DNA of 64,000 bases, from contig OZ253504.1 in the NCBI GenBank assembly GCA_965262235.1, forward strand, positions 13,081-77,080. The letters run 5' to 3'. Made by a program: the position numbers and the translations under genes. Under the pieces are notes generated by a model. That model saw nothing but the letters and a program-made list of their open reading frames with translations. It was not told where the DNA came from and searched no databases. Shown piece after piece: positions 5,209 through 38,947 of the stretch. Numbering within the stretch: the first letter of the stretch is position 1; the number at the start of each line of letters is the position of its first letter. The stretch is from Dehalococcoidia bacterium (GTDB lineage: Bacteria > Chloroflexota > Dehalococcoidia > Bin125).

Positions 5209-5274
5209 CTTCTGCCTCCGTTGCTGCGCTCGCGAATCCGCCCCGACGGTAGCAAAGCGGCTGGAGCGGTTCGA

Positions 5275-6378
5275 TCATCGCACCTCAAGCTGCCAACTCG
5301 CATCCACATCGAGGAAGCGGCCGATCGCCGCGACCTCCGCTTCGATGCCGGCGCGTTCGTCGACCGAGGGGTCGTCCACCGCGGTGACGCTGATCTTGAT
5401 TCCGCGCGACGTGCGACGACGGGTCCAGGTGCCGATCATCACGCCGTCGCAGACGATCGTCGGCAGAATCATGCCGCCGCCGGGGTGGACCCGGCGGACC
5501 AGATCCGCGCTGACCCCAAGTTCGCGCTTGGCGTAGCCCAGCAGGTAGGGATCGAACGGGCCCAGCATTCGCACGACTGGGGTCGGTTCGGCCAGGACCG
5601 CGTCGATCCGTCCGGCCGCCTCCGCCAACATCCGCATCGAGCGGCCGTCAACGCTCAGCTCCACCAGCTCGTCGGCGATCGCGTCGAATCCGGCCCGCGC
5701 GTCGGCCGCAGCGAGGCCGGTCCAGGTGCGGAAGTCGGATGGCGTGGCCGGGCCGTACGCGCCGAAGTAGCGGCGCGCGAGCTCAGCAGCAGGATTCGGC
5801 GGGTCTGCCGTCCGCTCAGGCAGCCACTCATCGAGCAGCACGTGGGTGTCGTCGCCGTCGGCGAGCGGTCCGAAGCAGATCAAGCCGGTCAGCGAAGCGG
5901 AGCGGAGCAAGTGTGGCACGACCTGCCCCTCCCAGGGCAGCCCGCCCTCACGGAAGCGTTCGATGATCTGCGCGCGCGTGAGCGCCTCGCGGGCGAGCTC
6001 GCGGCCGATCAGGGTCATCGCGTCGGTGTAGATGTCGGGGGTCACGCCGAGGTTGGCCCGCCGCTTGAGCGCCTTCCGATCCATCCGCGTGCCTAGCAGG
6101 TCGAGCATCCAGCCAATGTCGGCCGAGGGCACGAGGTGCAGCGTTCCGCGCATCAGCCAGGTGCGGACGACCGAGCGCGACTCGACCCGCTCACGGTGCA
6201 CGTCCGCAGCGGTGAGATGGTCCGAACGCGCCCGCACCGCCAGCACCTCGCCCATCCCATCCTGCGCCTGCACCCCCCCAATCGACCGCGCCAGCTCAGC
6301 GACGCCGCTCACCCGGCGCACCCCAAGCATCTGCGCCTCAAGCCGCACGCGTCTGCCTTGTTCCGTGGTCAGCTTCAC
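5275..6378 (-). CDS. Winged-helix DNA-binding protein, YcaQ/AlkZ-like (DUF1006) putative DNA glycosylase
   Basis: 367 aa. The N-terminal 'LT..QGRRVRLEAQMLG' and overall layout match the HTH_42/YcaQ family from memory. Confidence 0.6.
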   Translation of the reverse strand: MKLTTEQGRRVRLEAQMLGVRRVSGVAELARSIGGVQAQDGMGEVLAVRARSDHLTAADVHRERVESRSVVRTWLMRGTLHLVPSADIGWMLDLLGTRMDRKALKRRANLGVTPDIYTDAMTLIGRELAREALTRAQIIERFREGGLPWEGQVVPHLLRSASLTGLICFGPLADGDDTHVLLDEWLPERTADPPNPAAELARRYFGAYGPATPSDFRTWTGLAAADARAGFDAIADELVELSVDGRSMRMLAEAAGRIDAVLAEPTPVVRMLGPFDPYLLGYAKRELGVSADLVRRVHPGGGMILPTIVCDGVMIGTWTRRRTSRGIKISVTAVDDPSVDERAGIEAEVAAIGRFLDVDASWQLEVR

Positions 6379-11786: not shown

Positions 11787-14111
<2,325 letters not shown>

Positions 14112-17763: not shown

Positions 17764-18536
17764 TGCGTCACGATCCCAACCGCGTCGGACATGCTGCCAG
17801 TCAGATCGCGCCAGTGGTCATCATGCACCTCATCGGTTTAGCCGGCGCCGACGATCACGGATAACGTGAGGACGCCGAAGTTCGATCCAGGATCGGGTGT
17901 CGAGCGGGATCGAGTGGCCTTGCACCAAGCGGGTTCCCGGCATTAGGCAGGCCGACGACGAAACCAGCTCAGCGGCGCTGTCGAAAATCCTCGGGGACCG
18001 GACGGCCTCGGGATCTTCGCAACTCATGGCTGCCAGACCGTCCCCTGGCGCGTCTTGCCGCGCCACGACTCGACGGAGGTCACGAAACGCGCAACGTCAG
18101 GAACTGCGTATTCGACCGTCGATTCAGCCAGTCCGCTGAGTCTTCGAGTGGCGGCACGACGCTCGATGGTTTGAAAGGAACCGAATGACCGCTTGGTCAC
18201 CAGTCCGAACATGGGCTTGGCAAATCCCGAGTTGATCTGGCATACCGCAATCTGCTCCACGTATTCACTGACCACGCGGTGAGTGTCCAGCGTCAGGACA
18301 TCGTGGCAATGATCTCGGTACGGCGCCGCATTGAGCATCCGCATGAGGCGATCCTGCGAGAGCCACAGGAACACCTTGCGATTGAGAAACCCATACCACT
18401 GCGTGGTAGACAGGTTGGTCAGGGCGGCTTCCAAGTCGCTCGGCGGCATCGATTTCTGATCGCGGAGGGGATTATAACCCGCAGTTGACAATAGGCGGGA
18501 CTTTCGGTAGCCCGTGATCACACAGGAGAGACCGAA

Positions 18537-19499
18537 ATGGCAACCGCGAAGCAAGCCCCAGGGCGTTCAGACCGCACCGGACTGACCCTGCCGCAACTGT
18601 TCAAGATGTTTCCCGACGACGCCGCTGCTGAGCGCTGGTTCGAGCAGCTGATGTGGCGTGAGCAAGGCCCTATTTGCCCCGATTGCCAGTCTCAGAATCA
18701 CGCGGTCGTGGACGACGCTCACAAGTCAATGCCCTACCACTGCCGCGAATGCCGCTCCTACTACTCAGTTAAGAAGGGAACCGTCATGCACAGTTCCCAA
18801 CTCGGCTACCAGACGTGGGCGATTGCGCTCTACCAGATCATCACCGGACTCAAGGGCGTCTCGGCGATGAAACTGCATCGCCATCTGGGAATCAGCTACA
18901 AGACGGCATGGCACCTGCTGCATCGAATCCGCCAGGCGCTCGAATCGGGCGATCTGGCGATGTTTGACGGCGATGTCGAGGTAGACGAAACCTACGTCGG
19001 CGGTCGTGAAGCCAACAAGCACCAGAGCAAGCGACTCAAGCAAGGTGGCGGAACCTACGGCAAGGCCGCCGTCGCAGGCGCGAAGGATCGCAAGTCGGGC
19101 AAAGTTCACGCAAACGTCGTCAAGTCGGTCGTCAAGGCCACCGACAAGCTGACCTTGCACGGATTCGTGCACGACACCGTTGCCCCAGGCGCCCGCCTGT
19201 TCACAGACGAATGGCCGGCCTACAGGGGTGTCAGGATGCGCCACGCTGCGGTCAAGCACTCGGCAGGCGAGTACGTGGTCGGCGACGCTCACACACAGGG
19301 CATTGAGTCGTTCTGGTCGATGCTCAAGCGCGGGCTGAACGGCGTCTACCACCACGTCAGCGTGAAGCATCTTGACCACTACGTGGGAGAGTTCGCAGGC
19401 CGCCATAACCTGCGCGAATTCGACACTGAGGAACAGATGGCTCTTGTGGCCCGTGGGATGCAGGGCAAGCGCCTGCGCTACAGCGACTTGACCGCCTGA
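18537..19499 (+). CDS. IS1595-family transposase (N-terminal zinc ribbon plus DDE domain)
   Basis: 'CPDCQSQNHAV...YHCRECRSYYS' zinc ribbon and 'VEVDETYVGG' with a DDE core, typical of ISXO2-like/IS1595 transposases. Confidence 0.85.
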   Translation: MATAKQAPGRSDRTGLTLPQLFKMFPDDAAAERWFEQLMWREQGPICPDCQSQNHAVVDDAHKSMPYHCRECRSYYSVKKGTVMHSSQLGYQTWAIALYQIITGLKGVSAMKLHRHLGISYKTAWHLLHRIRQALESGDLAMFDGDVEVDETYVGGREANKHQSKRLKQGGGTYGKAAVAGAKDRKSGKVHANVVKSVVKATDKLTLHGFVHDTVAPGARLFTDEWPAYRGVRMRHAAVKHSAGEYVVGDAHTQGIESFWSMLKRGLNGVYHHVSVKHLDHYVGEFAGRHNLREFDTEEQMALVARGMQGKRLRYSDLTA

Positions 19500-19686
19500 G
19501 GCTTCTCGCCCTTGTTGCCGAGCATCGCTTTCAGCACACGCTTGGGCGCGTCGGGAATCCTCAAGTCCTTTGGCTCAGGCATCGGGACGGACTCTCGGTT
19601 GGCGGCGGATTTCCTTGCAATGCACCACTGTTCGCGTGTTGTCCAGTCGTGGCTAGAATGAGAATCGGCGGGGCAGCCTGGACGCT

Positions 19687-20136
19687 GTGTACCCGCCGAC
19701 TCAAGGCAAATCGCCTATCGTGAATGTATCGCGAGGGGCTGGTCGGGATGTTGATTTGCCCAGCCTTGCAACCATTGTTGAGCGAATCTGGGGCGCAATT
19801 CGGGATCGGACTCCATTCGGAGGCAAGATCGTCAAAGTTGCTCCCATGGCGTTGCTGTTTGTGGCTACCCATTTGGGGCACGTCGCAGCCCGTGAGATTC
19901 ACGAAGGGCACACCGTGCACGAAGCGCTGATTGCCGTTCCCGCCGTCCTTGCCTTTGTTGTTGTCATGTATTGGCTATATCGTCTCGGGCCGGTTGAGCC
20001 GGTAGAGAAAGAGCCAAGTCTGGCTGAGGCGTTTGCGGCGCTTCCGGCCGCAACTGCCGATGCCGTTGATCAGGTGATCGTGCGACGATTGGGACACCTG
20101 ATTGAAGATCTTCAGCCGGAGGAACCTGAACGCTAA
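19687..20136 (+). CDS. IS passenger ORF, small two-helix membrane protein
   Basis: 149-aa ORF lying entirely between the transposase gene and IRR. Contains two hydrophobic helices. Confidence 0.35.
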   Translation: MYPPTQGKSPIVNVSRGAGRDVDLPSLATIVERIWGAIRDRTPFGGKIVKVAPMALLFVATHLGHVAAREIHEGHTVHEALIAVPAVLAFVVVMYWLYRLGPVEPVEKEPSLAEAFAALPAATADAVDQVIVRRLGHLIEDLQPEEPER

Positions 20137-20703
20137 GCTGGCATCAATGTGCAACCAGATTACGTGGGTGCTATCCGATATAAGTCCCGCCTGTTGTCAA
20201 CTGCGGGTTATAATCCCCATCGCCGACCACAGCGCTGCCGTATGAGGGATGTTCGATCGGGATACTCTCCGGCCGCCACTGCGACTCAATGCTGGTTCGC
20301 GTCGCACCGTCGATTTCGAACAGGTCGAGCAACGCGGTCGTGCTGAGCAACCCGCGCTCGCGTATGCTCGGCCAGCTGCCGGACTCAGCCATGTGGTAGA
20401 GGGACGGGTACAGCGCTGCGAATCGCTCCAGCCGGGCGGGCGTCATCGATCCTGACTCCGATCGCTTGAGGAGAGGGGTCCGTTCGAGACGCCGTGCTCA
20501 CGAGGGTTGGATGTCGGAAAGGGCAGAATCCTCGCCGTTGGACAATACGGGCTCAGCGAGCGCTTCGGCCGGTGCGCAGACGAAGCAGTCACCGAAGTTG
20601 AGAGCGTTGCGGCCGAGTCGCTCACGGGAGGGATCGCCGGCTCGACGGAGAGGCGCGACGGCGTCGGCTAATCTCGGGGTCGGCGAGCCTGACCGAGGAT
20701 GGA

Positions 20704-21973: not shown

Positions 21974-22861
21974 ATGCCCGAGATCATCGACTTCAGAGTG
22001 ACGTTGCCGCCGCGTGAATGGATCGACCCCGCCGGCGATGGAGACAACCGCTTCGGGGACAGTAGTTACCTGGCCAACTACAACCGCATCTACACGCGCG
22101 AGCGTGGCGGCGGGCGAGACGCCGACGCGCTGGTCGCGGCGATCGGCGAGGCCGGCATCGACCGGGCGGTGCTGCAGGCCGAATGGGCGGCGGGCGACTA
22201 CCGCGCCATGAACGATGCCGTGCATCGGATCGTCACCGATCATCCCGACGTGCTGACCGGCTACGTCACCGTCAATCCCGGCGTCGGCGATGACATGGCG
22301 GCGGTCGTCGAGCATGAGGTCCGCGAACGCGGGGCACGCGGCGTCAACCTGCAGCCGTTCTCGTACCGCGTGCTGGCCAACGACAAGCGCTTCTACCCGC
22401 TGTATGCGAAGTGCCAGGAGCTCGGCGTTCCGGTCACGATTCACTCGTCGATCAACTTCTCGAACGACCGATCGATCGAGTTCGGCCGCCCGCTCTACCT
22501 CTGCGAGATCGCCTGCGATTTCCCCGAGCTCATCATCGTCGCGAACCACGGCGGCTGGCCCTGGGTCAACGAGCTGGTCGCAGTCGCGTGGAAGCACGCC
22601 AGTGTCTACATCGAGATCGGCGCGGTCGCGCCCAAGTACATCGGAACGCCGGGTACCGGCTGGGAGACGCTGATGCAGTATGGCAACTCGTCGCTGCTCA
22701 GCGACCGGGTGCTGTTCGCCACCGACAACATGATTCCCTTCCAGCGCGCCATCCAGGAGCTGCAGGACTTGCCGCTCAAGGACCACGTCAAGGAGGGCTG
22801 GCTGGGGGAGAACGCCGCGCGACTGCTCGCGCAGGTGGAGGACCGGTTGGCGGCGTTGTAA
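21974..22861 (+). CDS. Amidohydrolase-2 family protein (ACMSD-like metal-dependent hydrolase)
   Basis: 295 aa with 'VTIHSS', 'VANHGGWPW' and 'LFATDNM'. A diverged partial paralog sits at 27734-27919. Confidence 0.75.
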   Translation: MPEIIDFRVTLPPREWIDPAGDGDNRFGDSSYLANYNRIYTRERGGGRDADALVAAIGEAGIDRAVLQAEWAAGDYRAMNDAVHRIVTDHPDVLTGYVTVNPGVGDDMAAVVEHEVRERGARGVNLQPFSYRVLANDKRFYPLYAKCQELGVPVTIHSSINFSNDRSIEFGRPLYLCEIACDFPELIIVANHGGWPWVNELVAVAWKHASVYIEIGAVAPKYIGTPGTGWETLMQYGNSSLLSDRVLFATDNMIPFQRAIQELQDLPLKDHVKEGWLGENAARLLAQVEDRLAAL

Positions 22862-23063
22862 CGCTCTGACGATTGCCAGGTGGAATCACGTCGGCGGACT
22901 CGATGTCGATCGACTCCGCTGGCCGAATCACACCACGTGACTACTGGACGCAGTCAGATCCTCTGCCGTGAAGTCACGCGCGGTGCGGCCTGGATCCACC
23001 GCGGAAGCCATCCGCGCTGGTATCCTCGGCGCAACCCACTGGCGACGGGAGGACCGAACGACG

Positions 23064-24197
23064 ATGACCACCGTGACGCCATCCCTCCACGGCGATGCGG
23101 AGATGGATGAACCCATCGACGATGAGGCGCTGAAAAGCGACGCCGACCAAGAAATCCCGGGCATCGAGCGATACGAAATCGGCTTCTACGGAACCGACTT
23201 TCCCGTCGATGCCCTATACAAGCGGTTGTCGACGAGCGAGGAAAACGCGGAGGGCGACATCTATATCCCCGACTTCCAACGAGGATACGTCTGGACGAAG
23301 AGACAGGCCGACAGATTTATCGAGTCCCTGCTCCTCGGGCTTCCAGTCCCTGGGATTTTCCTATCCACGGATCGTCGGACTAGTCGCCGTTTCGTAATTG
23401 ACGGCGGCCAGCGACTGCGAACGATAAAGGCGTTCATGGACGGCAAGTTCAGGGATTCAGACTACACTCTCGGAAAAGGGGTACACGAGGACTTTGAGGG
23501 CAAGCGCTATACCGATCTCACACCGAGCGATCGTCGTCGATTTGATGACGCGATCATTCACGCCACCATCGTCCGGCAAGACCTACCAGAGCGCGGCGAT
23601 CGCTCTCTCTTTTATTTATTTGAGAGGCTTAACACGGGTGGGACACCGGCAGCCGCACACGAAGTTCGACGAAGCCTCTGGGGCGGTTCGTTAAATGTGC
23701 TGATCACGAAGCTCGCAGATAACCGAAACTGGCGCACTGTTTACGGCCGTCCTTCACCTCGGCTCAAAGATCAAGAGCTCATACTCCGTTTCTTCGCTCT
23801 CTACGTAGACGAAAGCCGTTATGGGAACACCGATCAGCGTACGATGAAGGACTTCCTGTCGTCGTTCATGGCTCGGCACCGAGAAATTGCCGAAGATACA
23901 GCTAAGGGATGGTCGGACGCATTCGAAGAGATCATCAAGTTGATTGATGAAGCGTTCGGACACGAGGCGTTCCGACCGGAGGGTAGGCTGAACGCGGCGG
24001 TGTACGACGCCGTCATGGTTGGGCTGGCGCACGCCCGGGACGGGGAGGGGCTGCCCGAGCTGAACGCGCTTCGCTCGGTATATGGTGGACTCATCGCGAA
24101 CAAGGAATTCCATGCCGCGACCAGTGACCGGACCTCCCATCAACCGAATGTCCAGAAACGGCTTCAGCTCGCACGGGCTGCCTTCCGACCGCGGTGA
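23064..24197 (+). CDS. DUF262 (ParB/GmrSD N-terminal-like) domain protein
   Basis: 'FVIDGGQRLRTI' (DGQQR-like motif). Start set at the ATG at 23064, 10 nt after GGGAGGA. GC is lower than the flanks. No DUF1524/HNH half present. Confidence 0.75.
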   Translation: MTTVTPSLHGDAEMDEPIDDEALKSDADQEIPGIERYEIGFYGTDFPVDALYKRLSTSEENAEGDIYIPDFQRGYVWTKRQADRFIESLLLGLPVPGIFLSTDRRTSRRFVIDGGQRLRTIKAFMDGKFRDSDYTLGKGVHEDFEGKRYTDLTPSDRRRFDDAIIHATIVRQDLPERGDRSLFYLFERLNTGGTPAAAHEVRRSLWGGSLNVLITKLADNRNWRTVYGRPSPRLKDQELILRFFALYVDESRYGNTDQRTMKDFLSSFMARHREIAEDTAKGWSDAFEEIIKLIDEAFGHEAFRPEGRLNAAVYDAVMVGLAHARDGEGLPELNALRSVYGGLIANKEFHAATSDRTSHQPNVQKRLQLARAAFRPR

Positions 24198-24206
24198 CGT
24201 AACTAG

Positions 24207-24671
24207 ATGTCTGCATCCTCAGGGCAGGATCCGCACAGTGCCCGGCTCGGTGAGGCCTTTAACCGCGCCGACAGACTCGCAGGCGAACCGGAAATCCAAG
24301 CCGACTATGCCCGATATCTCTGCGTCCTGGTCACTGGGTACCTCGAGCAGGCGGTTACCTTAGTCATCTTGAAGTACGTCGATGGTGTGGGGGATCAGCG
24401 TATCAGCAGGTATGTAGCCAGCACCCTAAACCGAGAGGGAAGTATGCAAGCCCCTCGAATTTTGGCGCTCGTTGGTCGCCTCGATGAAGGCTGGCACTCG
24501 CAGTTGAACGTAAAGCTCTCGCCGCAGCACCGTGAGGCCATCGGAAGTGCATACGCAAGTCGGAATAAGATCGTGCATGGCGAGGATGTGGACCTTACCT
24601 ATCGGCGGGTTCGCGACTACTACGACTTGGTTCGGGAAGCGGTCGGCTTTCTTGAGGAAGTTGTTCAATAG
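24207..24671 (+). CDS. HEPN-like small protein (R-x4-HG motif) partnered with the DUF262 gene
   Basis: 154 aa, beginning 10 nt after the DUF262 stop. C-terminal 'ASRNKIVHGED' fits the HEPN Rx4-6H signature. Helical composition. Confidence 0.45.
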   Translation: MSASSGQDPHSARLGEAFNRADRLAGEPEIQADYARYLCVLVTGYLEQAVTLVILKYVDGVGDQRISRYVASTLNREGSMQAPRILALVGRLDEGWHSQLNVKLSPQHREAIGSAYASRNKIVHGEDVDLTYRRVRDYYDLVREAVGFLEEVVQ

Positions 24672-24931
24672 ACCACAACCGGCTCAGCACTACCTGACGA
24701 TTCCATAATGATTGAGCTAGTTAGGGTCGGCGGGTGCGCTGTAGGGTCGGTCTAGCTGGGTGACACTGTCCGGCCCTGACCTCGGATCGAGTCCTCGGAC
24801 GCGATCCCAGACGCCATTCACGCGCACGAGTGATCCGACGGCCGACCAGTCAGACATCGTCCGGCAAGGTGGCCCGCCGGAGTCAGGCACCCGACCAACC
24901 CAAAGCATGACTACCCGAGGGAGCATCCCCC

Positions 24932-25363
24932 ATGAGTGAACTCGACCGCGATCTCGATCGAAACGCCGAGTCGACCAATCGTCTGCGAGACGTGGTTGGC
25001 CGACTCGGACAGCAGGACTTGGAACGCTCACTCGGGGACGGCTGGACGGTCGGCTTTGCGCTCGTCCACCTGGCGTTCTGGGATGCGCGCCAACACTTGG
25101 CGTTGCGGAGATTTGCACGAGGTGAGGGATTTCCATCCGAGGATGTGATGACGAACGCCACGTTGGCGTCGCTGACGTCGGTCTTTCGAGCCGACGCAGC
25201 CGGAGATGCGGCTGTCTGGGCAACCGAACAGCTCGACGCGACCGTGCGGAGCCTGACAGACGAGCAGCTCAGCTCCTTGCGTGATGCGGGATTCGAATAC
25301 GCAATCAAGCGCTGGCCGCACCGCGAGGAGCATCTTGCGCAGGTGGAGGCCGTCTTGCCCTGA
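24932..25363 (+). CDS. Hypothetical protein (possibly a DinB/YfiT-like helical bundle)
   Basis: 143-aa ORF with high GC3. The assignment is weak. Confidence 0.3.
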   Translation: MSELDRDLDRNAESTNRLRDVVGRLGQQDLERSLGDGWTVGFALVHLAFWDARQHLALRRFARGEGFPSEDVMTNATLASLTSVFRADAAGDAAVWATEQLDATVRSLTDEQLSSLRDAGFEYAIKRWPHREEHLAQVEAVLP

Positions 25364-25389: not shown

Positions 25390-26178
25390 TCAGGCTGGCG
25401 GTAGGGCAAGGAGCCTAGGCAAGAACGGAAGCGCCCTTGGGAACCGGGTCTCGAAGTACTTCTGGGCACGCTCGGGGAGCCACACTTCATTGAAGTACCT
25501 CCTGAACTCAGGAAGGAGGTCGATGGGGTAGAGCCTAGCTTCCACCGGTATCCTCGATTCGTCCGCGAACTCGTGCTGGTACGTGGGGAACTTGGATGGG
25601 TCGATGCCCTTGCGTCTCAGGAAGTCCGAGAACATACGACCGGCCGAGATGTCGGGCATCATCTTGTCGGGTGGGATGACCCCGGCGTCCTCAAGGGGCG
25701 CGAACAGGTTGAGGTAGATCTCATTGAGCATCGAGAAGTGCGTGTGGGGTATCTTGGCCCGGTTCTTCATGAACCGCTGTACATGGACGGGCATGTAGCC
25801 CTGAACCCGTCCCATCATCCAATCGCCAACCCACCGGCTCACCCTCACTGCAAACACAGGGGAGAGCCACTGCCCCAGATTGATCGCCACCTGAGGATGT
25901 ACCCATGTACCTTGGAGGCGGTTATCTCCGCCCTTGATAATCTGCACGAGTTCCGATGTGGGAATTCCCACATCGGACGAGAGCTCGTTCAGGAACTCCT
26001 TGGTTTCAGCGAGCCGATGGTAGTCACCAAAGCACTTTCCAACCTGCTTGCACAGGTCCGTGGCGTGGATGTAGCCGTCCTTCGCGCGCTGCGGGACGAC
26101 CTCTCCAGCGACGGGGTGTTCGATGAGGAGTTGGGGCTGCACGATGTCGAGCGCTCGGCTGGCGGGGCGCTGTTTCAT
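25390..26178 (-). CDS. KilA-N domain protein (phage-associated APSES-type DNA-binding domain)
   Basis: 'IEHPVAGEVVPQRAKDGYIHATDLCKQVGK...WLSPVFAVRVSRWV' matches KilA-N. Start reassigned to the ATG at 26178, which has a GGAGG 6 nt upstream; the ORF track extends it to 26373. Confidence 0.65.
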   Translation of the reverse strand: MKQRPASRALDIVQPQLLIEHPVAGEVVPQRAKDGYIHATDLCKQVGKCFGDYHRLAETKEFLNELSSDVGIPTSELVQIIKGGDNRLQGTWVHPQVAINLGQWLSPVFAVRVSRWVGDWMMGRVQGYMPVHVQRFMKNRAKIPHTHFSMLNEIYLNLFAPLEDAGVIPPDKMMPDISAGRMFSDFLRRKGIDPSKFPTYQHEFADESRIPVEARLYPIDLLPEFRRYFNEVWLPERAQKYFETRFPRALPFLPRLLALPPA

Positions 26179-26620
26179 GGTTTGCCTCCATGGCGATTCA
26201 GGAGTAGTACGCATCTCAGGCCCAGCATACACAGGGCGGTCGCCCAAGCCGGTCTCGACAACTAACCACAGGGAGCCGAGTGAACGCCCCCTCGTCTCTC
26301 GCCATCGAGGGGGGCAAACATCCTCAGCAGAGCCGGGCAGGACTATAGACCAGTGACCGGACTTGTGGCCCACGGGAGGTCAGTGATGGCGGAATCAGCG
26401 GCCAAGAATCGCAGTCCAAGGCGTCCGCCCTCGCGGGAGTGGCACCCAGACGCGACACCGAAGGAGGTGGCGCGGGCGATGTTCGGGGCGGTGGAGCCGC
26501 CGGACCCGAGCCGTCAGGGGCAGCGTCCGTAGCTCGGCAGGTCTACCTTATGATTCCCCTCGGGAGTTGACAGGGCGCCGTATCGGCTGCCGGAAATCGA
26601 TGGTGCAAGGGAGGCGACGC

Positions 26621-27733: not shown

Positions 27734-27919
27734 GTGCTGCGGCCGCTGTCCCTGCTTGGCGGGGGCGTCCTCCTCGCTACCGACAACATGCTCCCCTTCC
27801 AACGCGGCGTCCAGGAGTTGCAGGATCTGCCGCTGAAGCACCACCTCAAGGAGGGCTGGCTCGGAGAGGACGCGGCGCGACTGTTTGCGCAGGTGCAGGA
27901 ACGAGTAGCGGGGTTGTGA
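27734..27919 (+). pseudogene. 3' remnant of an amidohydrolase-2 paralog (C-terminal about 60 codons only)
   Basis: 'LATDNMLPFQRGVQELQDLPLKHHLKEGWLGEDAARLFAQV' is about 75% identical to the C-terminus of the 21974-22861 product. The N-terminal ~235 codons are absent. Confidence 0.6.
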
Positions 27920-30398: not shown

Positions 30399-33300
30399 TC
30401 AGTTCGGGCTGCCGCCGGTGGGCGTCGTGATCGCTGTGAGATTGCGTTTCGCGACCAGCGACTGGCGAGCTGCCAGTCCCCCCGCGAATCGGTCGAGGAA
30501 GGGTTGGCTGAGGAAGTCGGGATGGTCGGGGAAGAATCCGGTCCAACCGTCCCTCGTGTAGTGGTAGAGCGCGTCGACGGAGAGACTGCGGGCGCACTCC
30601 GCCAGCCCATCGATGCTGCCGCCGGTGTAGATCACGGCGCTGAGCGGCGCCTCGGTGAGACCGGGGAGGCAGCGCGCGCTGCCCTCGGGGGCGCGTTTGG
30701 CGATCAGCGCCTCGCCAGGCGCCGGGCCGTCCGGGAACCGCTCGCGGAAGGGCTGGCTGAGGAAGGTGGCATATCCGGGGAAGAATCCGGTCCAGCCATC
30801 ATCAGTGCGGCTATAGAGCGTGTCGACGGAGAGATCGCGAGCGCAATCCTCGAGCTCAGCCAGGCTGCCGCCGATGTAGGTGACGAGACTGAGGTGCTCA
30901 TCGGTGAGACCCGAGAGGCAGTTCTCGCTGCCGGCGGTCGCGCGCCTGGCGATCAGCGCCTGGCCAGCCACCACACCATTCGCGAAGCGGTCGCGGAAGG
31001 GCTGACTGAGGAACGCGGGGTAGTCGGGGAAGAAGCCGGTCCAGCTGTTGTCTGTGTAGTTGTAGAGCGTGTCCACGGAAAGATCGCGAGCGCAATCCGC
31101 GAGGTCAGCCAGGCTGCCGCCGATGTAGGTGACGAGACTGAGGCCCACCTCGGTCAGACCGGCGAGGCAGTGCCGGAGCCATACCCGGTAGACGCGCTCG
31201 CGGCTGCCGTCCGGAGAGATCACGGTGACAGCGATTACCAGCCCGTCCGACACCGCCACCTGGTGACCGTTGTCGGGGTTGGCGTCAGCGTCGGCCGGCA
31301 CGATCGTGACCGTGGCCTCCTCCTGGATCCCCGTGGCCTCCAGCGTTGTCTCGGTCAGACCACTGCTGAGGATGGCGGCGTATGACTTCCGTGCTGGTGA
31401 GAACTGACCGAACGCGATCCCGCTGAGCGATAGCGTCTCGAGCCGCGCGTCGATCGCGTCGGGCATGTTGTAGGTGTAGACTCTGTCGTCCCCGTCGTCG
31501 ACGACGTAGATCACCCCGCCGTCGGACCAGATGCCGCGCGGGTCGCCGTTGCCGGCGCGCAGCAACTGCTGGAAGTCGAACTCCTCCGCCTCGATTCGAT
31601 CGAGCGTCTCGCCGTTGATGCGGTACGCGAAGATACGATTGGCGCCGTCATCGGAGACCCACAGTGTGACGCCGTCGGACCAGATGCCCCGCGGGTCGGC
31701 GTTGAAGTCGTCGAGTTCGTATTCGGTGATCAGTTCGCCAGTTTCGAGGTCGTAGGCAAAGATCGACTCTCTGCGGTTGTCGAGGACGTAGATCACCTCG
31801 CCGTCGGACCAGATGTCGCGCGGGTCACGGTTGTCCTCATGGAGGTCGATATCGAGCTCGGGCACGCGGTCGCCGGTGACGATGTCGTAGGCGAAGAGCA
31901 CGTCCTGGCCGCTGTCGGAGACCCACATTGTTTGGCCGTCGGACCAGATGCCATGGGAGAATCGGTTTCTCTGGTCGAGTTCGAACTCGAGCTCCTCCAC
32001 GCGCTCGCCGGTGTCGAGGTCGTAGACGAAGATATCGTCGGGGCCGGAGGTCGCGTTCTGGAGGACCCAGAGCATCGCTCCGTTGCCCCAGATTCCTGTG
32101 GGCTCGGTGTGGTCGCCGTGCAGTGAGTCGATGTCGCGGGTGACGTTCCACGTAAAATCGACGTCGGATGGGACCGGTTTGGGCGCTGGACCGCCGCCTC
32201 CGCCTCCGCCTCCTCCGCCTCCGCCTCCTCCGCCACCGCCGCCGCCGCCGCCGCCGCCGGTTCCGCCGGTTCCGTCCGGATCGGCGGGCTCGGTACGGAA
32301 GGTGATTCGTTCCACGCCGCGCGTGAATCCATCGTCGAGCGAGGCTTCGAGGATGTACTCCTGGTCGGGGATCAGGTTGGCGACGGTGATCTCGGCCGTG
32401 TGGTCAGTCGTTTCTCCCATCGCAGTCTTCATCTCCGTCGCCCCTCGGCCCACTGCCCCCTTGGTGGTCGTCCCCACTGCCTCGTCAGACACCGGGCCAT
32501 AGCGGAGGTGCACCGTCTCCTCTGCGGTACCGGGCTCACCGATCTTGACAATCGCCTTAGCGGACTCGTCGGTCACATCCTTGACCGTCACCTCGATCAC
32601 CTTCGGCGTGGAGAAGGTGGCCGCGACCGGGCTGGCGAAGTCGGAACTGAGCGACGCCTGTAGGTCATACGTCGTGCTGACCATGAAGGTCGTGATGTCG
32701 CGCGTTGCAGTTTCCGTACCACTGAGTTCCAGCGGTGGGTCGCTCCATGCGGCGGCGGCGTGCTCCCGATACCGCACGAAGACCGTTTGAACCTGACTCT
32801 CCGCGTCGAGGATGGTGACGGTGACGGTCGCCTTCACGGCGGCGCCGGACCCCGACTGCGTGATATCCGTCACGCTGACGTCGGTGAGCGTGGGATCGAA
32901 CGCCGAGGTGGAGAAGGTGTCCGACACGATCGGCGTCGCGTCGAACGGGGTGCTGAACGCCGCCGTCACCTCGTACTCGGTCGACGGAGACAGGCCGGAG
33001 AGGGTCAGCGTGTGTCTGGACGTGTCGGCGGCGAAGTCGACGGGCGCGCTCCATGAGCCGGACGGCGTGCCCGTCGTGCGATAGCCCACGTAGACGGTGC
33101 TGCCATCCGGGTCATCGACCGTGACCGTAACCGTGGCCTCGGACGACGAATCGCTCGTGGCGGTGACGCTCACGATCTCCGGAACTGGTCCGTCGGTCGT
33201 GAAGGTGGTCTGTTGCGTGCCGATCGTAAACGTCGAGTCGAGCGACGCCTGCACGTCGTACTGGGTGCCGGCAGTCAGAGACGTGAGCTCGATCGTTGCG

Positions 33301-36300
33301 GTGTCTGAGTCGTTTGGGTCGGTATCGGCCTTCAGGTCCGCTGTGCTCCAGGCGCCCGGTGTCTCGCCGGCAGTGCGGTATCGCAAGTGGACCTCATGGG
33401 CGTCCCCACCCGCATTCGCGACAATGATCGTCGCCGTCGCGTCCTCTTGGTTGATGCCGGCCTCGTAGACGAAGACATCCTCGACAATTGGGTCATCGCC
33501 CAGGGTGGAGAAGACAGTCGGCCGTACTCCTGAGGTGAAGTCGCTGGCCAGCGTGGCTTCCACCTTGTACTGCGTCGCGGCGGTCAGACTCGAGAGCGGG
33601 ATCGTCGCGTCTGCGTCAGTGCTGGTCGCCGGCTCGGCGGTAGTCCAGCTTTCTGTCGCCGTGGGGGAGTAGCGCAGCCGGACCGTCTGCGAGTCGCCAT
33701 TCGGCGCGGCGATCTTGATCTTGGCGTTCGCGGTCGTCTTGGTCTTGTCGTCGCCAACGATGACCGAGTACACGCTGGGCGGCAGGGTTGTGAAGGTCGC
33801 CGACAGCGTGACATCGGTGTCGGGGAAGCTGGAATCGTATGAGGCCTGGACCTCGTATTCGCGGTCGGAGGTCAGACCACGCAGCGCGAACACCGCCTCT
33901 GTTTCCTCGGCGATGACGGCCTTTTTCGCCGTGCGCCAAGCGTCGGTTCCGGTGCGATATTGCAGGTGTACGAAGCTCCCGTTGGGCGCCGCAACGCCAA
34001 CAGTGACCGTCGCCGTGGTCTGCTTCTCGTCGCCGGCGCTGATCGATTCAACGCTCGGCGGAAGGGTCGTGAAGCTATCGGAGCGGGTCGCATCCGTGTC
34101 CGGGAACGTGTTGTCGTACGACGCTTCAACCTCGTAGCTCGTGTCCGACGTCAGATCGATCAGGGTGAACTCGTACGGGGACTCGCCGGAGTCGACCTCC
34201 GCCGATTCGGGCTTCCAGGTGTCGGTGGCGCCGGCGCGGTATTGGATGTAGACGCGGCTGCCGTTCGGTTCCGTGACATTCACGGTAATCTTCGCGCCGG
34301 TCTGGCTCTCGTCGCTCGCGACCACCGAATCCACGCTGGGTGGTTCGGTCGCGAACTTCCCGATAGTCGTCTCGTCGGTCGGGAAGGTGTCGTCGAGCGA
34401 GGCTTCAAGCTCGTAGTCGGTCCCGGAGGTGAGGTCGCTCAGTGAGAAGTCTGCGTGTGCGCTGGTTGTGTCCTCCGGCTCGGTTGCCTCCCAGGCCATC
34501 TCGCCCTTGAACCGATAGCGAAGATGGACTTTCTTCGAGTCGCTGTTCGGCGCGCTGATGATGGCCCTGATGGTGGCCGTGGTCTGGGTCTTCTCGATCG
34601 CGCTGACGGACTCGATCGCCGGTGGCAGCGTCGTGAAGCTGGCCGTCTTGGTTCGGGTCGTCGGGAAGCTGCTGTCGAACGACGCCTCCACGGTGTACTC
34701 GCGGTCCGCTGTGAGCCCGGAGAGCAGGAAGTCCACCGTCAACACGCCGACCTCCACCGCAAGCGAGGTCGTCTCCCAGTTCCCGCTGCTCGCCGTCTCC
34801 CGATAACGCAGGTTGACGAGGCCGCCATTGGCCTGGCTGACGGTGACCGTCGCCGTCGCTTCGGTCTGGCTGATCGAGGCCTCGGCCACTTCGACCGACT
34901 CGACGCCAGGAGGTGAGGACCAGCCCGAATACTGGCGGTTGTTGTTCAGGGGGTACGCAAGCAGACTGTCTCTGGTCGAGGCCGAGCCGGTGTTGGAGCT
35001 GACCCAGACGATGTCGCCGTCGGACCAGAAGCCGTTGATTGTGCCATGCCCGGAAGGCAAGGTGATGTCGTGGACGGGGATGTGGTGGGCGTTGGCCAGC
35101 CCACCCGACAGATCAAGCGCAAACAGTTTCTTCGTCGAGCATTGCGTCGCCAGGTACAGCAGGCTCCGCGATGCATCGTGCCAGATGCCTGCGACCTGAT
35201 CATGCTCACACACTGAATCCGGAACGACGATATCCTTGCTGTAGTCCCGCTGGCCGTAGGCGGCATCATATGCAAACAACGTGTCGCGTCCCGACGCGGC
35301 GGCCCAGAATGTCGAGCCGTCGCCGAAGAATGCGTTGGCCTCGGGAATCTGTACACGGTCCACCCCGGGCGGATGGTAATCGGACGCACGCATGTCGCCG
35401 TTCGCCTGCACAAGATCGCTTGAGAGGAATACACCGTCTGATTCCCGGTATGGAACGAACGCGACTTCCTCGGAAGTATTGATCGATTCCAGGTAGTTCG
35501 CGGTCACCGTCCAAAGGCGCGTCTCGTCGCCCCACAGGCCGCCGTCCACATCCGCGTAGTCAGCCGGCGGGACACTGGTGGAGTCACTGTGCGGCGTGAT
35601 GTCATCGTCGGCTTCTGCCGCGCCGGTCGCGAGGTCGTATGCGTAGAGCTTGCTGTCCGATGCGTGCGCGAGCCAGATCGTGTCGCCGTCCGACCAGACG
35701 CCGTGAGCCGAATTCTCAACGATCGTGCCGGCGGTCAGCTCGATATCTCGCAGCGCCGCGCAGCGATCGGTGGCGTAGTAGACGGCGCGCACTCGGTAGC
35801 GGTACGACGCTTGGGGGTCGACGCTGTCATCGAGGTAGCTGGCCGAATCCGCGTCGAGGCAAGTCAGGAAGGCGAAAGCGCCGTCGTCGTCGGCCCGCTC
35901 GATCTCGTACTGATAGACATCTTCGCGCAGGCCGGGAGTGATTGGCGTGGGCGGTGGACTCCAACTGAGCCGCGGGCCGTCGGTCTCGTCGGCGCGAGCG
36001 AAGTTCGTCGGACCTGCACCGCCGTCGGCCACTGTGACCATGACGTCGGGCAGTGTGAGAACGTTATATTCGATCGCGCTGCCGCCGATCGTGTGGGACA
36101 GCTGGAAGCCGATGTTTTGCGTGACGGAGTCGGCGGGTGCGCTGACGATCACGTACTGCGGCGTCTCCCAGTTCGACGGCGTGAAGCTGAGCCTGGAGGC
36201 GCTCGTGGTCAAGCCCGGGGTCACGTCCGGGGCAGTTGAGATGGAGATGGTGACAGAACCTGAGGGCTCTGAGATAATCGCAGCCTTGTAGTAGTCCCGG

Positions 36301-37715
36301 CCACCCTCAGGAACGGTGATGACAGTTGGGTTGATGATTCCACCGGTGTCATCGTCGATCACGGTCGTCACCACGTCGACGGATGACCCCACGTATATGC
36401 TGTCGGTACCGCCGGCGCCGGAGATTCGGATCGTCACCTCGTCGTTGGCGCCGTCGTCGTCATCGCCAGCGGTGACGGTCACCGTGTGACCTGAAGCCCA
36501 GTTCGACTCGGTGAACTGGAACCGCGCCGGAACGGCCGTCAGATCGCCGCCGACGTCGACGCGGAACTCGACCTCGGGCGTGTCGCTCCCTCTGGCAGTG
36601 GGCGGGGTGCACAGCGCGACCGTGATCGTGACTGTCCCACTCTCGGGAATGTAGAGACGCCGGGGGTCGACTCTTACGCATCCCCCAGCCCCTTCGTCGT
36701 CCGCGATCTCAACGTTCACGCGGGGTCCTGCGAGGCCGTTGTAGTTGGCGTCGCTGCTGGAACTGGCGAAGCTAACACTGATTGGGCCATCCACGTCCCA
36801 TCTACCACGCTCCGCGTTATCCGTGCCTGAGACAGTGAACGGTTGCGGCGTGCCCCAATCGGTGCTGGTAAACGTCAATGACGATGGATCGACCATGACG
36901 TTTGCGTTGCCGTTGCGGGTCGCGGTCACCGTCACATCCGCCGTCGGTGGAGCTTCCAGCATCACCTGAATAGTCCCCGAGTCGCCCTCGGCGATCCGCA
37001 TCCGAGCCGGCGACGCGCTGATCCCCGCGTCGTCGTCGTCTTCGATCACCACCTGCACGTCCCGCACATCCAGGCTCAGGTACTCCGACGCGCTGCCTGT
37101 CTTGACTTCGTGAGTGATGATGGCCCTGCCGTCGTCCGAGTCCGCGTCATCCAGGCCGGTGACGGTGATGATCTGCGGGCTGCGCCAGGCCGTGGGCGTG
37201 AACTTGACCTCCGTTGGGTAGGCCGTGACGCCCGCACCGGCGCTGATCACGACGGTTACGTTGGCGCTCGGCGCGCTTCGCAGGTAAATCCAATACCTGC
37301 CGCTGCCGCCCTCGTCGATCTTCAGATAGGTCGGGGTGACGAGCACCTCAGGCTGCAGCGTCTGAGTGGGTGCGAAGCCACCGCTTGTGCTGGTATCGGC
37401 AACAGACGAGAAGACAGCGCGTAGCTGCCCTGACGTGGGTACTCTGCTCACGCCGTTGGAGGCGCGGTCTGGGTCCAGCGGCGAATTCGTAGCTGTCGCG
37501 GTCCCTGGATGTGCAACGGCGTGGTCGATCGAGAGTGAGCCGGCGTCTAGGGACGCCGTGTCGAGGTCTTGGCCATGGGCGGACCAGGAGCTGGACAACA
37601 AGGCGCCAAGCAGGGCAACTCCTGCGACTCCGAGGAGCAGCAACGTGTGGCGACTGCGGACAATGCCGACGACCGCGGCGCATACAATCCGCGTGCGCCG
37701 CGTGAGTTCGCGCAT
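30399..37715 (-). CDS. Giant secreted multi-repeat surface protein (about 2440 aa): beta-sandwich repeats, beta-propeller blades, about 9 FN3-like repeats, a poly-Gly hinge and three C-terminal ~83-aa modules
   Basis: Signal peptide 'TLLLLGVAGVALLGALLSSSWSAHG'. Repeated 'HLRYR...W...TSDREYEVQASYDSSFP' units. 'DPRGIWSDG..LWVSD' blades. 'CLxGLTE...WTGFFPD' occurs three times. The authentic start is probably the ATG at 37715 (MRELTRR), because the first 5 codons of the tracked ORF lie inside the IS5 inverted repeat. Confidence 0.7.
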   Translation of the reverse strand: MRELTRRTRIVCAAVVGIVRSRHTLLLLGVAGVALLGALLSSSWSAHGQDLDTASLDAGSLSIDHAVAHPGTATATNSPLDPDRASNGVSRVPTSGQLRAVFSSVADTSTSGGFAPTQTLQPEVLVTPTYLKIDEGGSGRYWIYLRSAPSANVTVVISAGAGVTAYPTEVKFTPTAWRSPQIITVTGLDDADSDDGRAIITHEVKTGSASEYLSLDVRDVQVVIEDDDDAGISASPARMRIAEGDSGTIQVMLEAPPTADVTVTATRNGNANVMVDPSSLTFTSTDWGTPQPFTVSGTDNAERGRWDVDGPISVSFASSSSDANYNGLAGPRVNVEIADDEGAGGCVRVDPRRLYIPESGTVTITVALCTPPTARGSDTPEVEFRVDVGGDLTAVPARFQFTESNWASGHTVTVTAGDDDDGANDEVTIRISGAGGTDSIYVGSSVDVVTTVIDDDTGGIINPTVITVPEGGRDYYKAAIISEPSGSVTISISTAPDVTPGLTTSASRLSFTPSNWETPQYVIVSAPADSVTQNIGFQLSHTIGGSAIEYNVLTLPDVMVTVADGGAGPTNFARADETDGPRLSWSPPPTPITPGLREDVYQYEIERADDDGAFAFLTCLDADSASYLDDSVDPQASYRYRVRAVYYATDRCAALRDIELTAGTIVENSAHGVWSDGDTIWLAHASDSKLYAYDLATGAAEADDDITPHSDSTSVPPADYADVDGGLWGDETRLWTVTANYLESINTSEEVAFVPYRESDGVFLSSDLVQANGDMRASDYHPPGVDRVQIPEANAFFGDGSTFWAAASGRDTLFAYDAAYGQRDYSKDIVVPDSVCEHDQVAGIWHDASRSLLYLATQCSTKKLFALDLSGGLANAHHIPVHDITLPSGHGTINGFWSDGDIVWVSSNTGSASTRDSLLAYPLNNNRQYSGWSSPPGVESVEVAEASISQTEATATVTVSQANGGLVNLRYRETASSGNWETTSLAVEVGVLTVDFLLSGLTADREYTVEASFDSSFPTTRTKTASFTTLPPAIESVSAIEKTQTTATIRAIISAPNSDSKKVHLRYRFKGEMAWEATEPEDTTSAHADFSLSDLTSGTDYELEASLDDTFPTDETTIGKFATEPPSVDSVVASDESQTGAKITVNVTEPNGSRVYIQYRAGATDTWKPESAEVDSGESPYEFTLIDLTSDTSYEVEASYDNTFPDTDATRSDSFTTLPPSVESISAGDEKQTTATVTVGVAAPNGSFVHLQYRTGTDAWRTAKKAVIAEETEAVFALRGLTSDREYEVQASYDSSFPDTDVTLSATFTTLPPSVYSVIVGDDKTKTTANAKIKIAAPNGDSQTVRLRYSPTATESWTTAEPATSTDADATIPLSSLTAATQYKVEATLASDFTSGVRPTVFSTLGDDPIVEDVFVYEAGINQEDATATIIVANAGGDAHEVHLRYRTAGETPGAWSTADLKADTDPNDSDTATIELTSLTAGTQYDVQASLDSTFTIGTQQTTFTTDGPVPEIVSVTATSDSSSEATVTVTVDDPDGSTVYVGYRTTGTPSGSWSAPVDFAADTSRHTLTLSGLSPSTEYEVTAAFSTPFDATPIVSDTFSTSAFDPTLTDVSVTDITQSGSGAAVKATVTVTILDAESQVQTVFVRYREHAAAAWSDPPLELSGTETATRDITTFMVSTTYDLQASLSSDFASPVAATFSTPKVIEVTVKDVTDESAKAIVKIGEPGTAEETVHLRYGPVSDEAVGTTTKGAVGRGATEMKTAMGETTDHTAEITVANLIPDQEYILEASLDDGFTRGVERITFRTEPADPDGTGGTGGGGGGGGGGGGGGGGGGGGGGGPAPKPVPSDVDFTWNVTRDIDSLHGDHTEPTGIWGNGAMLWVLQNATSGPDDIFVYDLDTGERVEELEFELDQRNRFSHGIWSDGQTMWVSDSGQDVLFAYDIVTGDRVPELDIDLHEDNRDPRDIWSDGEVIYVLDNRRESIFAYDLETGELITEYELDDFNADPRGIWSDGVTLWVSDDGANRIFAYRINGETLDRIEAEEFDFQQLLRAGNGDPRGIWSDGGVIYVVDDGDDRVYTYNMPDAIDARLETLSLSGIAFGQFSPARKSYAAILSSGLTETTLEATGIQEEATVTIVPADADANPDNGHQVAVSDGLVIAVTVISPDGSRERVYRVWLRHCLAGLTEVGLSLVTYIGGSLADLADCARDLSVDTLYNYTDNSWTGFFPDYPAFLSQPFRDRFANGVVAGQALIARRATAGSENCLSGLTDEHLSLVTYIGGSLAELEDCARDLSVDTLYSRTDDGWTGFFPGYATFLSQPFRERFPDGPAPGEALIAKRAPEGSARCLPGLTEAPLSAVIYTGGSIDGLAECARSLSVDALYHYTRDGWTGFFPDHPDFLSQPFLDRFAGGLAARQSLVAKRNLTAITTPTGGSPN
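30402..31169. repeat. Three tandem ~249-270-bp coding repeats (C-terminal triplicated module of the giant protein)
   Basis: Protein units CLAGLTE.., CLSGLTD.., CLPGLTE.. have near-identical DNA blocks, for example 'cggtccagc..atc..gtgtagt..tagagcgtgtcgacggagag' recurring. Confidence 0.8.
32192..32270. repeat. Poly-(GGN)/(ccgcctcc)n coding tract for about 26 consecutive Gly
   Basis: Direct reading of 'ccgcctccgcctccgcctcctccgcc...gccgccgccgccgcc'. Confidence 0.8.
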
Positions 37716-37760
37716 GAATCGCCTGCTTCCGTGCACGTGCTCACTCCGATGATCACTTAG

Positions 37761-38947
37761 GAACGCTCTGAACAAGGCAGGGATGTGGGCTGGTTACGAT
37801 CGGGGCAGCGACCGCCGAAGGGAGCGCCTCGATGCAGGAACCGACGTTTGGCAGCCTGGAGTTTGCGCACAAGAAGCGGAAGACCCGGCGTGAGCGGTTC
37901 CTGGAGCGGCTCGAGTCGCTGGTGCCCTGGGCCGCGTTGGAGGCGCGCGTCGAACCGGTCTATCCCAAGCCGGGGCGCGGACGGCGGCCCTACCGCCTGG
38001 CCGTGATGCTGCGCGTTCACTGCGTGCAGCTCTGCTACAACCTCAGCGACCCGGCGCTCGAGGACTTGCTCTACGAGGCCGAGTCGGTACGCCGCTTCTG
38101 CGGACTGAACCTCAGTGGGCCGATCCCTGACGAGTCGACGATCCTGCACTTTCGTCATCTCTTGGAGCGGCATCAGCTGGGCGAGGCGCTGCTGCAGACG
38201 ATCAACGCGCACCTGGCAGGCCAGGGTCTGCGGCTGCAGGCCGGCACGATCGTGGACGCGAGCATCATCGCGGCGCCGTCCTCGACCAAGAACCAGCGTC
38301 GCCAGCGCGACCCGGAGATGCATCAGACCAAGAAGGGCAACCAGTGGCACTTCGGGATGAAGCTGCATATCGGGGTGGACGCGGACCTGGGCCTGACCCA
38401 CAGCCTGAGCACGACCGCGGCGAACAGCGCCGATGTGACCGAGGCGCATCGGCTCTTGCACGGCGGCGAACGAGCGGCCTGGGGCGACGCCGGCTACCAG
38501 GGCGCGGAGCGGCGTCCCGAACTGGCCGACTCGGCGGTCGAGTGGCGGGTCGCGATGCGTCCCGGCCGCAGGCGCATGCTGCCGCCGGACAGCCCACTCG
38601 CCCAGCGCGAGCGTGAGCGGGCTTCGCTGCGGGCCAAGGTCGAGCATCCCTTCCTCTACATCAAACGGCGCTTCGGCTACGACAAAGTGCGCTATCGCGG
38701 CCTGGCCAAGAATCACCAGCGGCTGGCGCTGTTGCTCGGCTTCGCCAATCTGTTGATCGCCGAGTCGCAACTGGCCTGAACCGGGGCGGACTGCGCCCCT
38801 CGCCCGGCTCGGCCCCACACATGCGGCCAACCGGACCCTCAGCACCGCCCCAACCCATCGCCCCGCTCGCCCACTCACCGCAGTGACCCAACCGCCCGCG
38901 CCCAGTCAGCACGAAGTCCGCTCAATCGCCTCTTGTTCAGAGCGTTC
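37761..38947. mobile_element. IS5-family insertion sequence (1187 bp) with imperfect terminal inverted repeats and a 4-bp TTAG target duplication
   Basis: Left end 'gaacgctctgaacaagg' against the reverse complement of the right end 'gaacgctctgaacaaga'. TTAG at 37757-37760 and 38948-38951, consistent with the YTAR target of IS5. Confidence 0.75.
37832..38779 (+). CDS. IS5-family DDE transposase
   Basis: 315 aa with 'HFGMKLHIGVDADLGLTHSLSTTAANSADV...GDAGYQG', the DDE motif region of IS5/ISL2-like transposases. Confidence 0.85.
   Translation: MQEPTFGSLEFAHKKRKTRRERFLERLESLVPWAALEARVEPVYPKPGRGRRPYRLAVMLRVHCVQLCYNLSDPALEDLLYEAESVRRFCGLNLSGPIPDESTILHFRHLLERHQLGEALLQTINAHLAGQGLRLQAGTIVDASIIAAPSSTKNQRRQRDPEMHQTKKGNQWHFGMKLHIGVDADLGLTHSLSTTAANSADVTEAHRLLHGGERAAWGDAGYQGAERRPELADSAVEWRVAMRPGRRRMLPPDSPLAQRERERASLRAKVEHPFLYIKRRFGYDKVRYRGLAKNHQRLALLLGFANLLIAESQLA

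Follow-up and report, generated by a model that had tools for sequence, protein, structure and literature searches.

A PD-T4-2-type DUF262–HEPN gene pair, a probable anti-phage module, in a Chloroflexota chromosome

When a gene for a ParB-like DUF262 protein is followed at once by a gene for a small HEPN protein, do the two form a defence module, and is that module one already known? The question is raised by two open reading frames (ORF-A and ORF-B) in a 64,000-nucleotide (nt) stretch of DNA, hereafter the window, from a Dehalococcoidia bacterium (assembly GCA_965262235.1, contig OZ253504.1, positions 13,081 to 77,080 of the forward strand), which an initial annotation had put forward as a candidate minimal defence module. 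Our analysis supports that proposal in substance, although the module is not new: its composition is that of the validated system PD-T4-2, and the find is a Chloroflexota copy of an already validated family rather than a new candidate system. From the sequence comparisons below, we consider it likely that the window genes are a PD-T4-2-type two-gene anti-phage module that reached its Chloroflexota (Dehalococcoidia/Tepidiformaceae-like) chromosome by horizontal transfer and is carried there as cargo.

The two genes and their counterparts in PD-T4-2

PD-T4-2 was isolated from Escherichia coli ECOR65 (Vassallo et al. 2022, PMC9519451), where it is described as ‘DUF262, HEPN’ (Table S1 of that study) and comprises two coding sequences (1,540 bp; Table S2), with HHpred assigning protein A to PF03235 (99.7%) and protein B to PF18735, HEPN_RiboL-PSP (97.8%; Table S3). 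Deletion of the system from ECOR65 restored plaquing by T4, and the system moved to K-12 protects (PMC9519451). A review enters DUF262 and PF18735 both under PD-T4-2 (PMC10952713), and a 2013 survey of HEPN domains had tabulated ‘Ribo L-PSP-HEPN ... operon with ParB’ (PMC3710099); our literature search found no paper with both ‘RiboL-PSP’ and ‘DUF262’. Akin to PD-T4-2, the window pair consists of two co-oriented genes of about 1.5–1.6 kb, drawn from the same two Pfam families and arranged in the same order.

ORF-A (23064–24197, + strand) encodes a protein of 377 amino acids (aa) with a ParB-like DUF262 (GmrSD_N) nucleoside triphosphatase (NTPase) domain and a helical C-terminal domain. Its ATG start is preceded by a Shine-Dalgarno-like GGGAGGA, and a longer version starting from a GTG at 22968 was rejected because homologues share the N-terminus that the ATG at 23064 gives. 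The protein matches Pfam GmrSD_N/DUF262 (PF03235) with an E-value of 1.5e-26 and no second Pfam domain, and it carries all three motifs by which DUF262 has been defined (PMC12065111), each located on the + strand and assessed in alignments of 28 and 33 homologues. Motif I, QRxxxW, reads QRGYVW (residues 72–77, 23277–23294), with Q72, R73 and W77 invariant; motif II, DGxQR, reads DGGQR (residues 113–117, 23400–23414), with D113, G114, Q116 and R117 invariant and a middle residue that varies among homologues (G/Q/S/L/A/Y); and motif III, FxxxN, reads FERLN (residues 186–190, 23619–23633), with N190 invariant and F186 nearly so. Motif II, the predicted nucleotide-binding centre, lies within FVIDGGQRLRTI, the stretch quoted in the initial annotation.

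The AlphaFold2 (AF2) model of ORF-A (predicted local distance difference test score, pLDDT, of 82) has a helical C-terminus, and its best Foldseek matches are SspE (7drs, 6jiv), BrxU (7p9m) and ParB-CTP, with Noc and sulfiredoxin also recovered. The C-terminal helical domain is of the DNA-binding type, the ‘ParBDB’ domain of NsnA-like proteins, and ORF-A contains no nuclease domain. The DUF1524/HNH half that usually accompanies DUF262 had been reported missing, and we likewise found none, either in ORF-A or in the ORFs scanned between 11.8 and 37.8 kb; a split GmrSD was rejected on this ground. Among PADLOC models, ORF-A scores best on NsnA of the Menshen system (6.8e-62, positions 39–377 of 385) and also matches PD-T4-2_A over nearly its whole length (2e-50, model positions 56–361 of 363). 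As a DUF262/GmrSD_N protein of about 360–380 aa that lacks DUF1524, it is the predicted counterpart of PD-T4-2_A, namely a sensor and regulator subunit.

ORF-B (24207–24671, + strand, ATG start) encodes an all-helical RiboL-PSP-type HEPN protein of 154 aa that matches Pfam HEPN_RiboL-PSP (PF18735) with an E-value of 2.4e-11 and 44.3 bits, the gathering score being 28.4; Swt1-HEPN also matches, below threshold. The catalytic HEPN motif, R-x4-H (Rx4H), is RNKIVH (residues 119–124, 24561–24578, + strand) within SRNKIVHGED. Among 25 family members, R119, N120 and H124 are each kept in 90% or more, and the motif is present in 141 of the 150 best cluster representatives (50% identity) of the family, with the consensus R[NH]xIAHG. 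All 43 close homologues of ORF-B belong to PF18735, and an exhaustive profile search returned 1,620 cluster representatives (50% identity) at E ≤ 1e-3, nearly all of them stand-alone proteins of about 150–165 aa. The partner typical of the Chloroflexota clade, divergent and 154 aa long, has an invariant N-terminal motif, RYLC...G..E. The AF2 model (pLDDT 85) is a seven-helix bundle, whose structural matches in the PDB include the HEPN toxins 7ae9 and 7bxo. As a small RiboL-PSP-type HEPN protein with an Rx4H motif, ORF-B is the predicted RNase effector and counterpart of PD-T4-2_B.

Both ORFs are intact where the initial annotation had placed them, and its assignment of the first to DUF262 and of the second to the HEPN class held up. 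The Pfam matches and many conserved homologues argue that they are genuine genes rather than chance ORFs. A scan against NCBIfam assigned no family to either; a PDB search with the sequence of ORF-A gave no match and one with ORF-B gave chance matches only (E > 0.3), so that the close relatives of either protein are without a solved structure in these searches.

In terms of PD-T4-2 membership, the window thus supplies the A protein, a B protein of PF18735 with Rx4H, and a two-gene operon with A preceding B; a match to the PADLOC model of PD-T4-2_B is missing. This last result heads the points that weigh against our assignment. The model (168 positions) gave no match to ORF-B at a threshold of E 0.1 or of E 10, and the link to the E. 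coli B protein therefore rests on the Pfam family, the architecture and profile–profile homology to other HEPN partners. ORF-A, as mentioned, scores higher on NsnA than on PD-T4-2_A. Foldseek matches ORF-B to HEPN proteins in the PDB, yet these matches are weak (template modelling scores of ∼0.45–0.53; the best, 2hsb, has a probability of 0.98 and E 0.1). Simple scans of 22700–25000 found no sigma-70 promoter and, as intrinsic terminators, only two chance-level sites, both inside ORF-A. The mechanism of PD-T4-2 itself was described as largely uncharacterised in 2025 (PMC12065111), and for the window pair we infer the activity, the trigger, the RNA target and the A–B interaction alike.

The two PADLOC results lose part of their force once the relatives of ORF-A are considered. 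When the PD-T4-2_B model was run against six HEPN partners of ORF-A homologues, two were matched weakly (one from E. coli at 4.4e-4 and one from Kocuria at 7.9e-3) and the other four were missed, two of them from E. coli plasmids; since it misses or barely detects E. coli plasmid partners, the model is, to judge from these scores, too narrow. Likewise, HEPN-partnered DUF262 proteins of E. coli plasmids score higher on NsnA than on PD-T4-2_A, and the order of the two scores therefore does not discriminate between the systems.

Conservation of the pair and the alternatives to a defence role

The two genes of the window are co-oriented and separated by a spacer of 9 nt (CGTAACTAG, 24198–24206, + strand) that runs from the TGA of ORF-A to the ATG of ORF-B, a tight operon junction within a pair of 1,608 bp in all. 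Over 19 related loci in which both genes read through, the distance from the stop of A to the start of B was −4 to +9 nt in 18; the outlier (L015) computes as −50, probably owing to the choice of start codon. The identity of the A protein to that of the window rises and falls with that of the B protein (Spearman 0.94, n=17), and B evolves the faster of the two.

The initial annotation had suggested looking for these two families side by side in other genomes, and we found them as neighbours, amid unrelated flanking genes, in every related locus examined (nine of ten for the sampled plasmids). Genome-contig loci retrieved with the ORF-B profile had an ORF-A homologue directly upstream in nine cases out of nine (40–77% identity), as did all metagenome loci recovered through ORF-B homologues. 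ORF-A homologues of 46–54% identity were followed by a PF18735 gene in a cyanobacterial genome (L006) and in metagenome or metagenome-assembled genome (MAG) contigs (L007–L009), and the sampled plasmid homologues of ORF-A (28–37% identity) were followed by a HEPN gene in 9/10. These plasmids include IncX1, IncF and small plasmids of E. coli and plasmids of Kocuria, Arthrobacter, Rhodococcus, Hymenobacter, Exiguobacterium and Polaromonas, and RefSeq usually labels the partner ‘HEPN domain-containing protein’. Phages carry such genes as well: Akkermansia phage Chambord has a set of methyltransferase, DUF262 and PF18735 genes, and Moraxella phages have a pair of DUF262 and MAE_28990 HEPN genes. 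Alignment of the ORF-B family with four plasmid HEPN partners by hhalign gave 98.6% probability (E 8.9e-16) and placed the Rx4H of ORF-B opposite ERNSFAHG of the plasmid proteins. The pair thus occurs in six phyla (Chloroflexota, Cyanobacteria, Actinomycetota, Bacteroidota, Bacillota and Pseudomonadota); its flanking genes are unlike in every locus examined, and the third gene after it is not conserved among related loci. Taken together, these comparisons indicate that the DUF262 and HEPN genes are co-inherited and co-evolve across phyla.

In two related loci one gene of the pair seems to be frameshifted or truncated. In L005 (8859–9991, a long-read contig at 9x) ORF-A is split into 260 + 117 aa, and in L011 (about 5001–5456) ORF-B comes to 60 aa; the cause may lie in the assemblies or in genuine decay.

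A unit that travels on small plasmids could chiefly be a toxin–antitoxin or addiction module, with ORF-B as a HEPN toxin and ORF-A as its protein antitoxin or regulator, which would stabilise a mobile element or island without acting on phages. Homologous pairs are indeed found on very small plasmids such as pLR-27_3 of E. coli (3.9 kb), where genes for replication and for a VbhA-family antitoxin leave room for little else than the pair; on an IncF plasmid the pair adjoins PemIK toxin–antitoxin genes; and HEPN is the toxin in HEPN-MNT systems, which furnish the closest structural matches. Yet the homologous E. coli system blocks T4 both natively and heterologously, and ORF-B is partnered here not by an MNT-type or small labile antitoxin but by an NTPase of 377 aa whose sensor architecture is that of SspE and BrxU. 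We regard a role mainly in addiction as improbable, and note that defence and addiction are compatible roles.

In some related loci a methyltransferase gene lies directly upstream of the pair: of the Dam type in the cyanobacterial locus L006 (2833–3636), of the cytosine type in the Rhodococcus plasmid pROB02 (L025, 739–2025), and also in Akkermansia phage Chambord (L029, 369–1484). This arrangement hints that some versions of the pair work like restriction–modification with an RNase effector. It would also suit a type IV, modification-dependent restriction of DNA, in which the DNA is cut by DUF262 itself or by a DUF1524 nuclease whose gene lies elsewhere and the HEPN protein is accessory, a scheme to which the GmrSD_N family membership and BrxU/SspE-like fold of ORF-A lend themselves and which recalls the historical annotation of ParB-like domains as nucleases (PMC3710099). 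Against it stand the lack of DUF1524/HNH in ORF-A and in the scanned neighbours, the finding that what accompanies DUF262 in the conserved pair is invariably a HEPN protein whose RNase dyad is intact, and the absence of a methyltransferase beside the pair in the window, and we accordingly hold DNA restriction of this kind to be quite unlikely, more so than addiction. That ORF-A is an orphan NsnA of a decayed Menshen system (NsnABC) with ORF-B an unrelated neighbour is harder still to credit and was rejected: NsnA is its best PADLOC match (6.8e-62) and a single plasmid homologue (Photobacterium, 29% identity, the tenth of those sampled) has an AAA_15/DUF3696 ATPase gene and one further gene behind it in a Menshen-type layout, but neither an NsnB-like ATPase nor NsnC adjoins ORF-A, A and B are conserved as a tightly spaced, co-evolving pair, and HEPN-partnered E. 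coli DUF262 proteins also score best on NsnA.

Genomic setting of the pair

The pair had been described as an AT-richer islet, which the base composition bears out: the GC content of ORF-A and ORF-B is 0.57 as opposed to 0.652 for the window, and the GC content at third codon positions (GC3) is 0.63–0.65 as opposed to 0.87–0.89 in the flanking CoA-transferase and amidohydrolase genes. These low values suggest that the pair is of foreign origin. It sits between the amidohydrolase gene (21974–22861) and a repeat of the 3′ end of that gene, the two copies of this direct repeat (22716–22859 and 27774–27917, + strand, 144 nt, 83% identity) bracketing a variable segment of 4.9 kb that holds the defence genes. 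The second copy lies just after a cytochrome c gene and forms a 61-codon remnant ORF (27734–27919).

Besides the pair, the variable segment holds four ORFs, which are DinB-like, KilA-N/BstA-like, a GNAT acetyltransferase and the cytochrome c. The DinB-like ORF (24932–25363, + strand, 143 aa) has sub-threshold similarity only, to DinB_2 and MDMPI_N, and matches no PADLOC model. Such an ORF (145 aa) directly follows the pair in the related loci L005 and L031 as well and is absent from that position in more distant loci; the ORF is unlikely to belong to the system. The KilA-N gene (25390–26373, − strand) was said in the initial annotation to lie next to the pair; it is present, but the DinB-like ORF intervenes. 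Its product matches Pfam KilA-N (4.7e-23) at residues 90–186 and, in its C-terminal half, the PADLOC model of the abortive-infection protein BstA (5.2e-18, residues 196–310); the gene, downstream of the pair with one ORF in between, is likely a BstA-like defence gene. Its true start is probably further in than the listed GTG, an ATG (MKQRPAS...) lying ∼65 codons in.

The segment varies among three close relatives, in all of which the pair is kept; the relatives of the locus are MAGs assigned to Tepidiformaceae, Dehalococcoidia and Chloroflexota. Two close relatives (L005 and L031) have the pair at the same site, ORF-A showing identities of 96% and 99%, while the BstA-like gene is absent from both and the GNAT gene from one of them; the pair is therefore a stable resident and its neighbours turn over. 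We found no integrase around the variable segment, no tRNA gene and hence no tRNA-linked integration site, and no Rfam element in the whole window.

Further upstream of the pair, a DUF7002 gene on the − strand is split (18024–20446): one ORF (20171–20446) covers positions 1–63 of the profile and another (18024–18554) positions 61–195. Between the halves lie an IS1595/ISXO2-like transposase gene (18537–19499, + strand) and ∼0.7 kb of extra DNA, and the split looks like the result of insertion by this insertion sequence (IS); at that position in L031 both the DUF7002 gene and the IS are missing. A giant ORF (30399–37775, − strand) of 2,458 aa with fn3, cadherin-like and immunoglobulin (Ig)-like repeats is probably a surface or adhesin protein, and a second repeat protein (SWM_repeat/cadherin) is encoded at 11787–14111 (− strand).

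Proposed mechanism and comparison with known systems

In GmrSD, BrxU and SspE, DUF262 senses modified DNA, and hydrolysis of nucleoside triphosphate (NTP) switches on the attached nuclease (PMC12065111, PMC10952713). HEPN proteins are metal-independent RNases, usually dimers, that often cut tRNA or mRNA in abortive infection (bioRxiv 10.64898/2026.02.22.705581). By analogy with these proteins, we infer that ORF-A is a DNA-sensing NTPase switch and ORF-B an RNase effector under its control, and that here and in PD-T4-2 the HEPN protein would supply the nuclease activity in trans, as had been proposed for the window pair at the outset. In an uninfected cell ORF-A would keep ORF-B inactive. On infection ORF-A, bound to DNA, would act in the manner of GmrSD, BrxU and SspE as an NTP-dependent ParB-like switch that recognises a feature of the invading DNA, for example its modification state or intermediates of replication; it would then release or activate its HEPN partner, probably a dimer with a composite active site, which would cut cellular and/or phage RNA (tRNA, mRNA or rRNA), halting translation and aborting the infection. 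The methyltransferase upstream of the pair in some related loci would fit DNA-modification status as the signal, although there is none here or in the two-gene E. coli system. Going beyond the assignment to PD-T4-2, we offer tentatively, as a proposal with slightly less than even chances, that the DUF262 clamp or sensor directly licenses a separate HEPN RNase and so converts detection of invader DNA into RNA cleavage, that the Chloroflexota clade is an unrecognised branch, and that the system is far commoner than catalogued.

The assignment extends PD-T4-2, validated but mechanistically unsolved in E. coli, to an uncultured high-GC Chloroflexota, and its value lies mainly in annotation, that is, in broader models of the B subunit and in the breadth of the family. 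As PADLOC misses ORF-B, automatic tools would probably not call the system here, and as its B model is too narrow, counts of the system are probably too low; at 50% identity the family of the HEPN partner by itself falls into about 1,600 clusters. The control of an RNase by a ParB-like NTPase is a problem more tractable in E. coli than at the window locus.

In light of earlier work on related systems, ORF-A resembles GmrSD, BrxU and SspE in its N-terminal DUF262 NTPase and middle helical domain (SspE and BrxU being its best structural matches) and likely follows the same logic, in which DNA sensing is coupled to activation of an effector. The effector differs in that it is a separate predicted RNase, so that RNA rather than DNA is the expected target. 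With Menshen (NsnABC; Millman et al. 2022; Li et al. 2025, PMC12065111) the window shares an NsnA-like protein, ORF-A having the ParB-DUF262 domain, the QRxxxW, DGxQR and FxxxN motifs and a helical C-terminal ParBDB-like domain. Directly downstream, in the place of the NsnB ATPase, there is a HEPN gene, with no ATPase within the segment, and in the third position, in the place of NsnC (inPIN + nuclease), there is the DinB-like ORF; the effector is thus a stand-alone HEPN protein instead of an NsnB transducer and an NsnC inPIN-nuclease.

On the effector side, ORF-B is akin to the stand-alone HEPN RNases of abortive infection (DARNA/PD-T7-3, ApeA, HepS and AbiF/AbiD) in being a HEPN effector with Rx4H, one that probably forms dimers and, once activated, cuts tRNA or mRNA, the sensor being a separate ParB-like NTPase here and a fused C-terminal domain in DARNA. 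HEPN-MNT toxin–antitoxin systems provide, in their HEPN toxins, the nearest solved folds to ORF-B; their antitoxin is an MNT nucleotidyltransferase, whereas the partner here is the DUF262 protein, and the Pfam scan found no nucleotidyltransferase domain nearby. From PD-T4-2 itself, for which the E. coli plasmid homologues served as proxies of the ECOR65 proteins in our comparisons, the window pair differs in sequence (ORF-A is ∼31–33% identical to the E. coli plasmid versions), in an acidic, disordered N-terminal extension of ∼35 aa on ORF-A, and in its host, an uncultured high-GC Chloroflexota rather than a proteobacterium.

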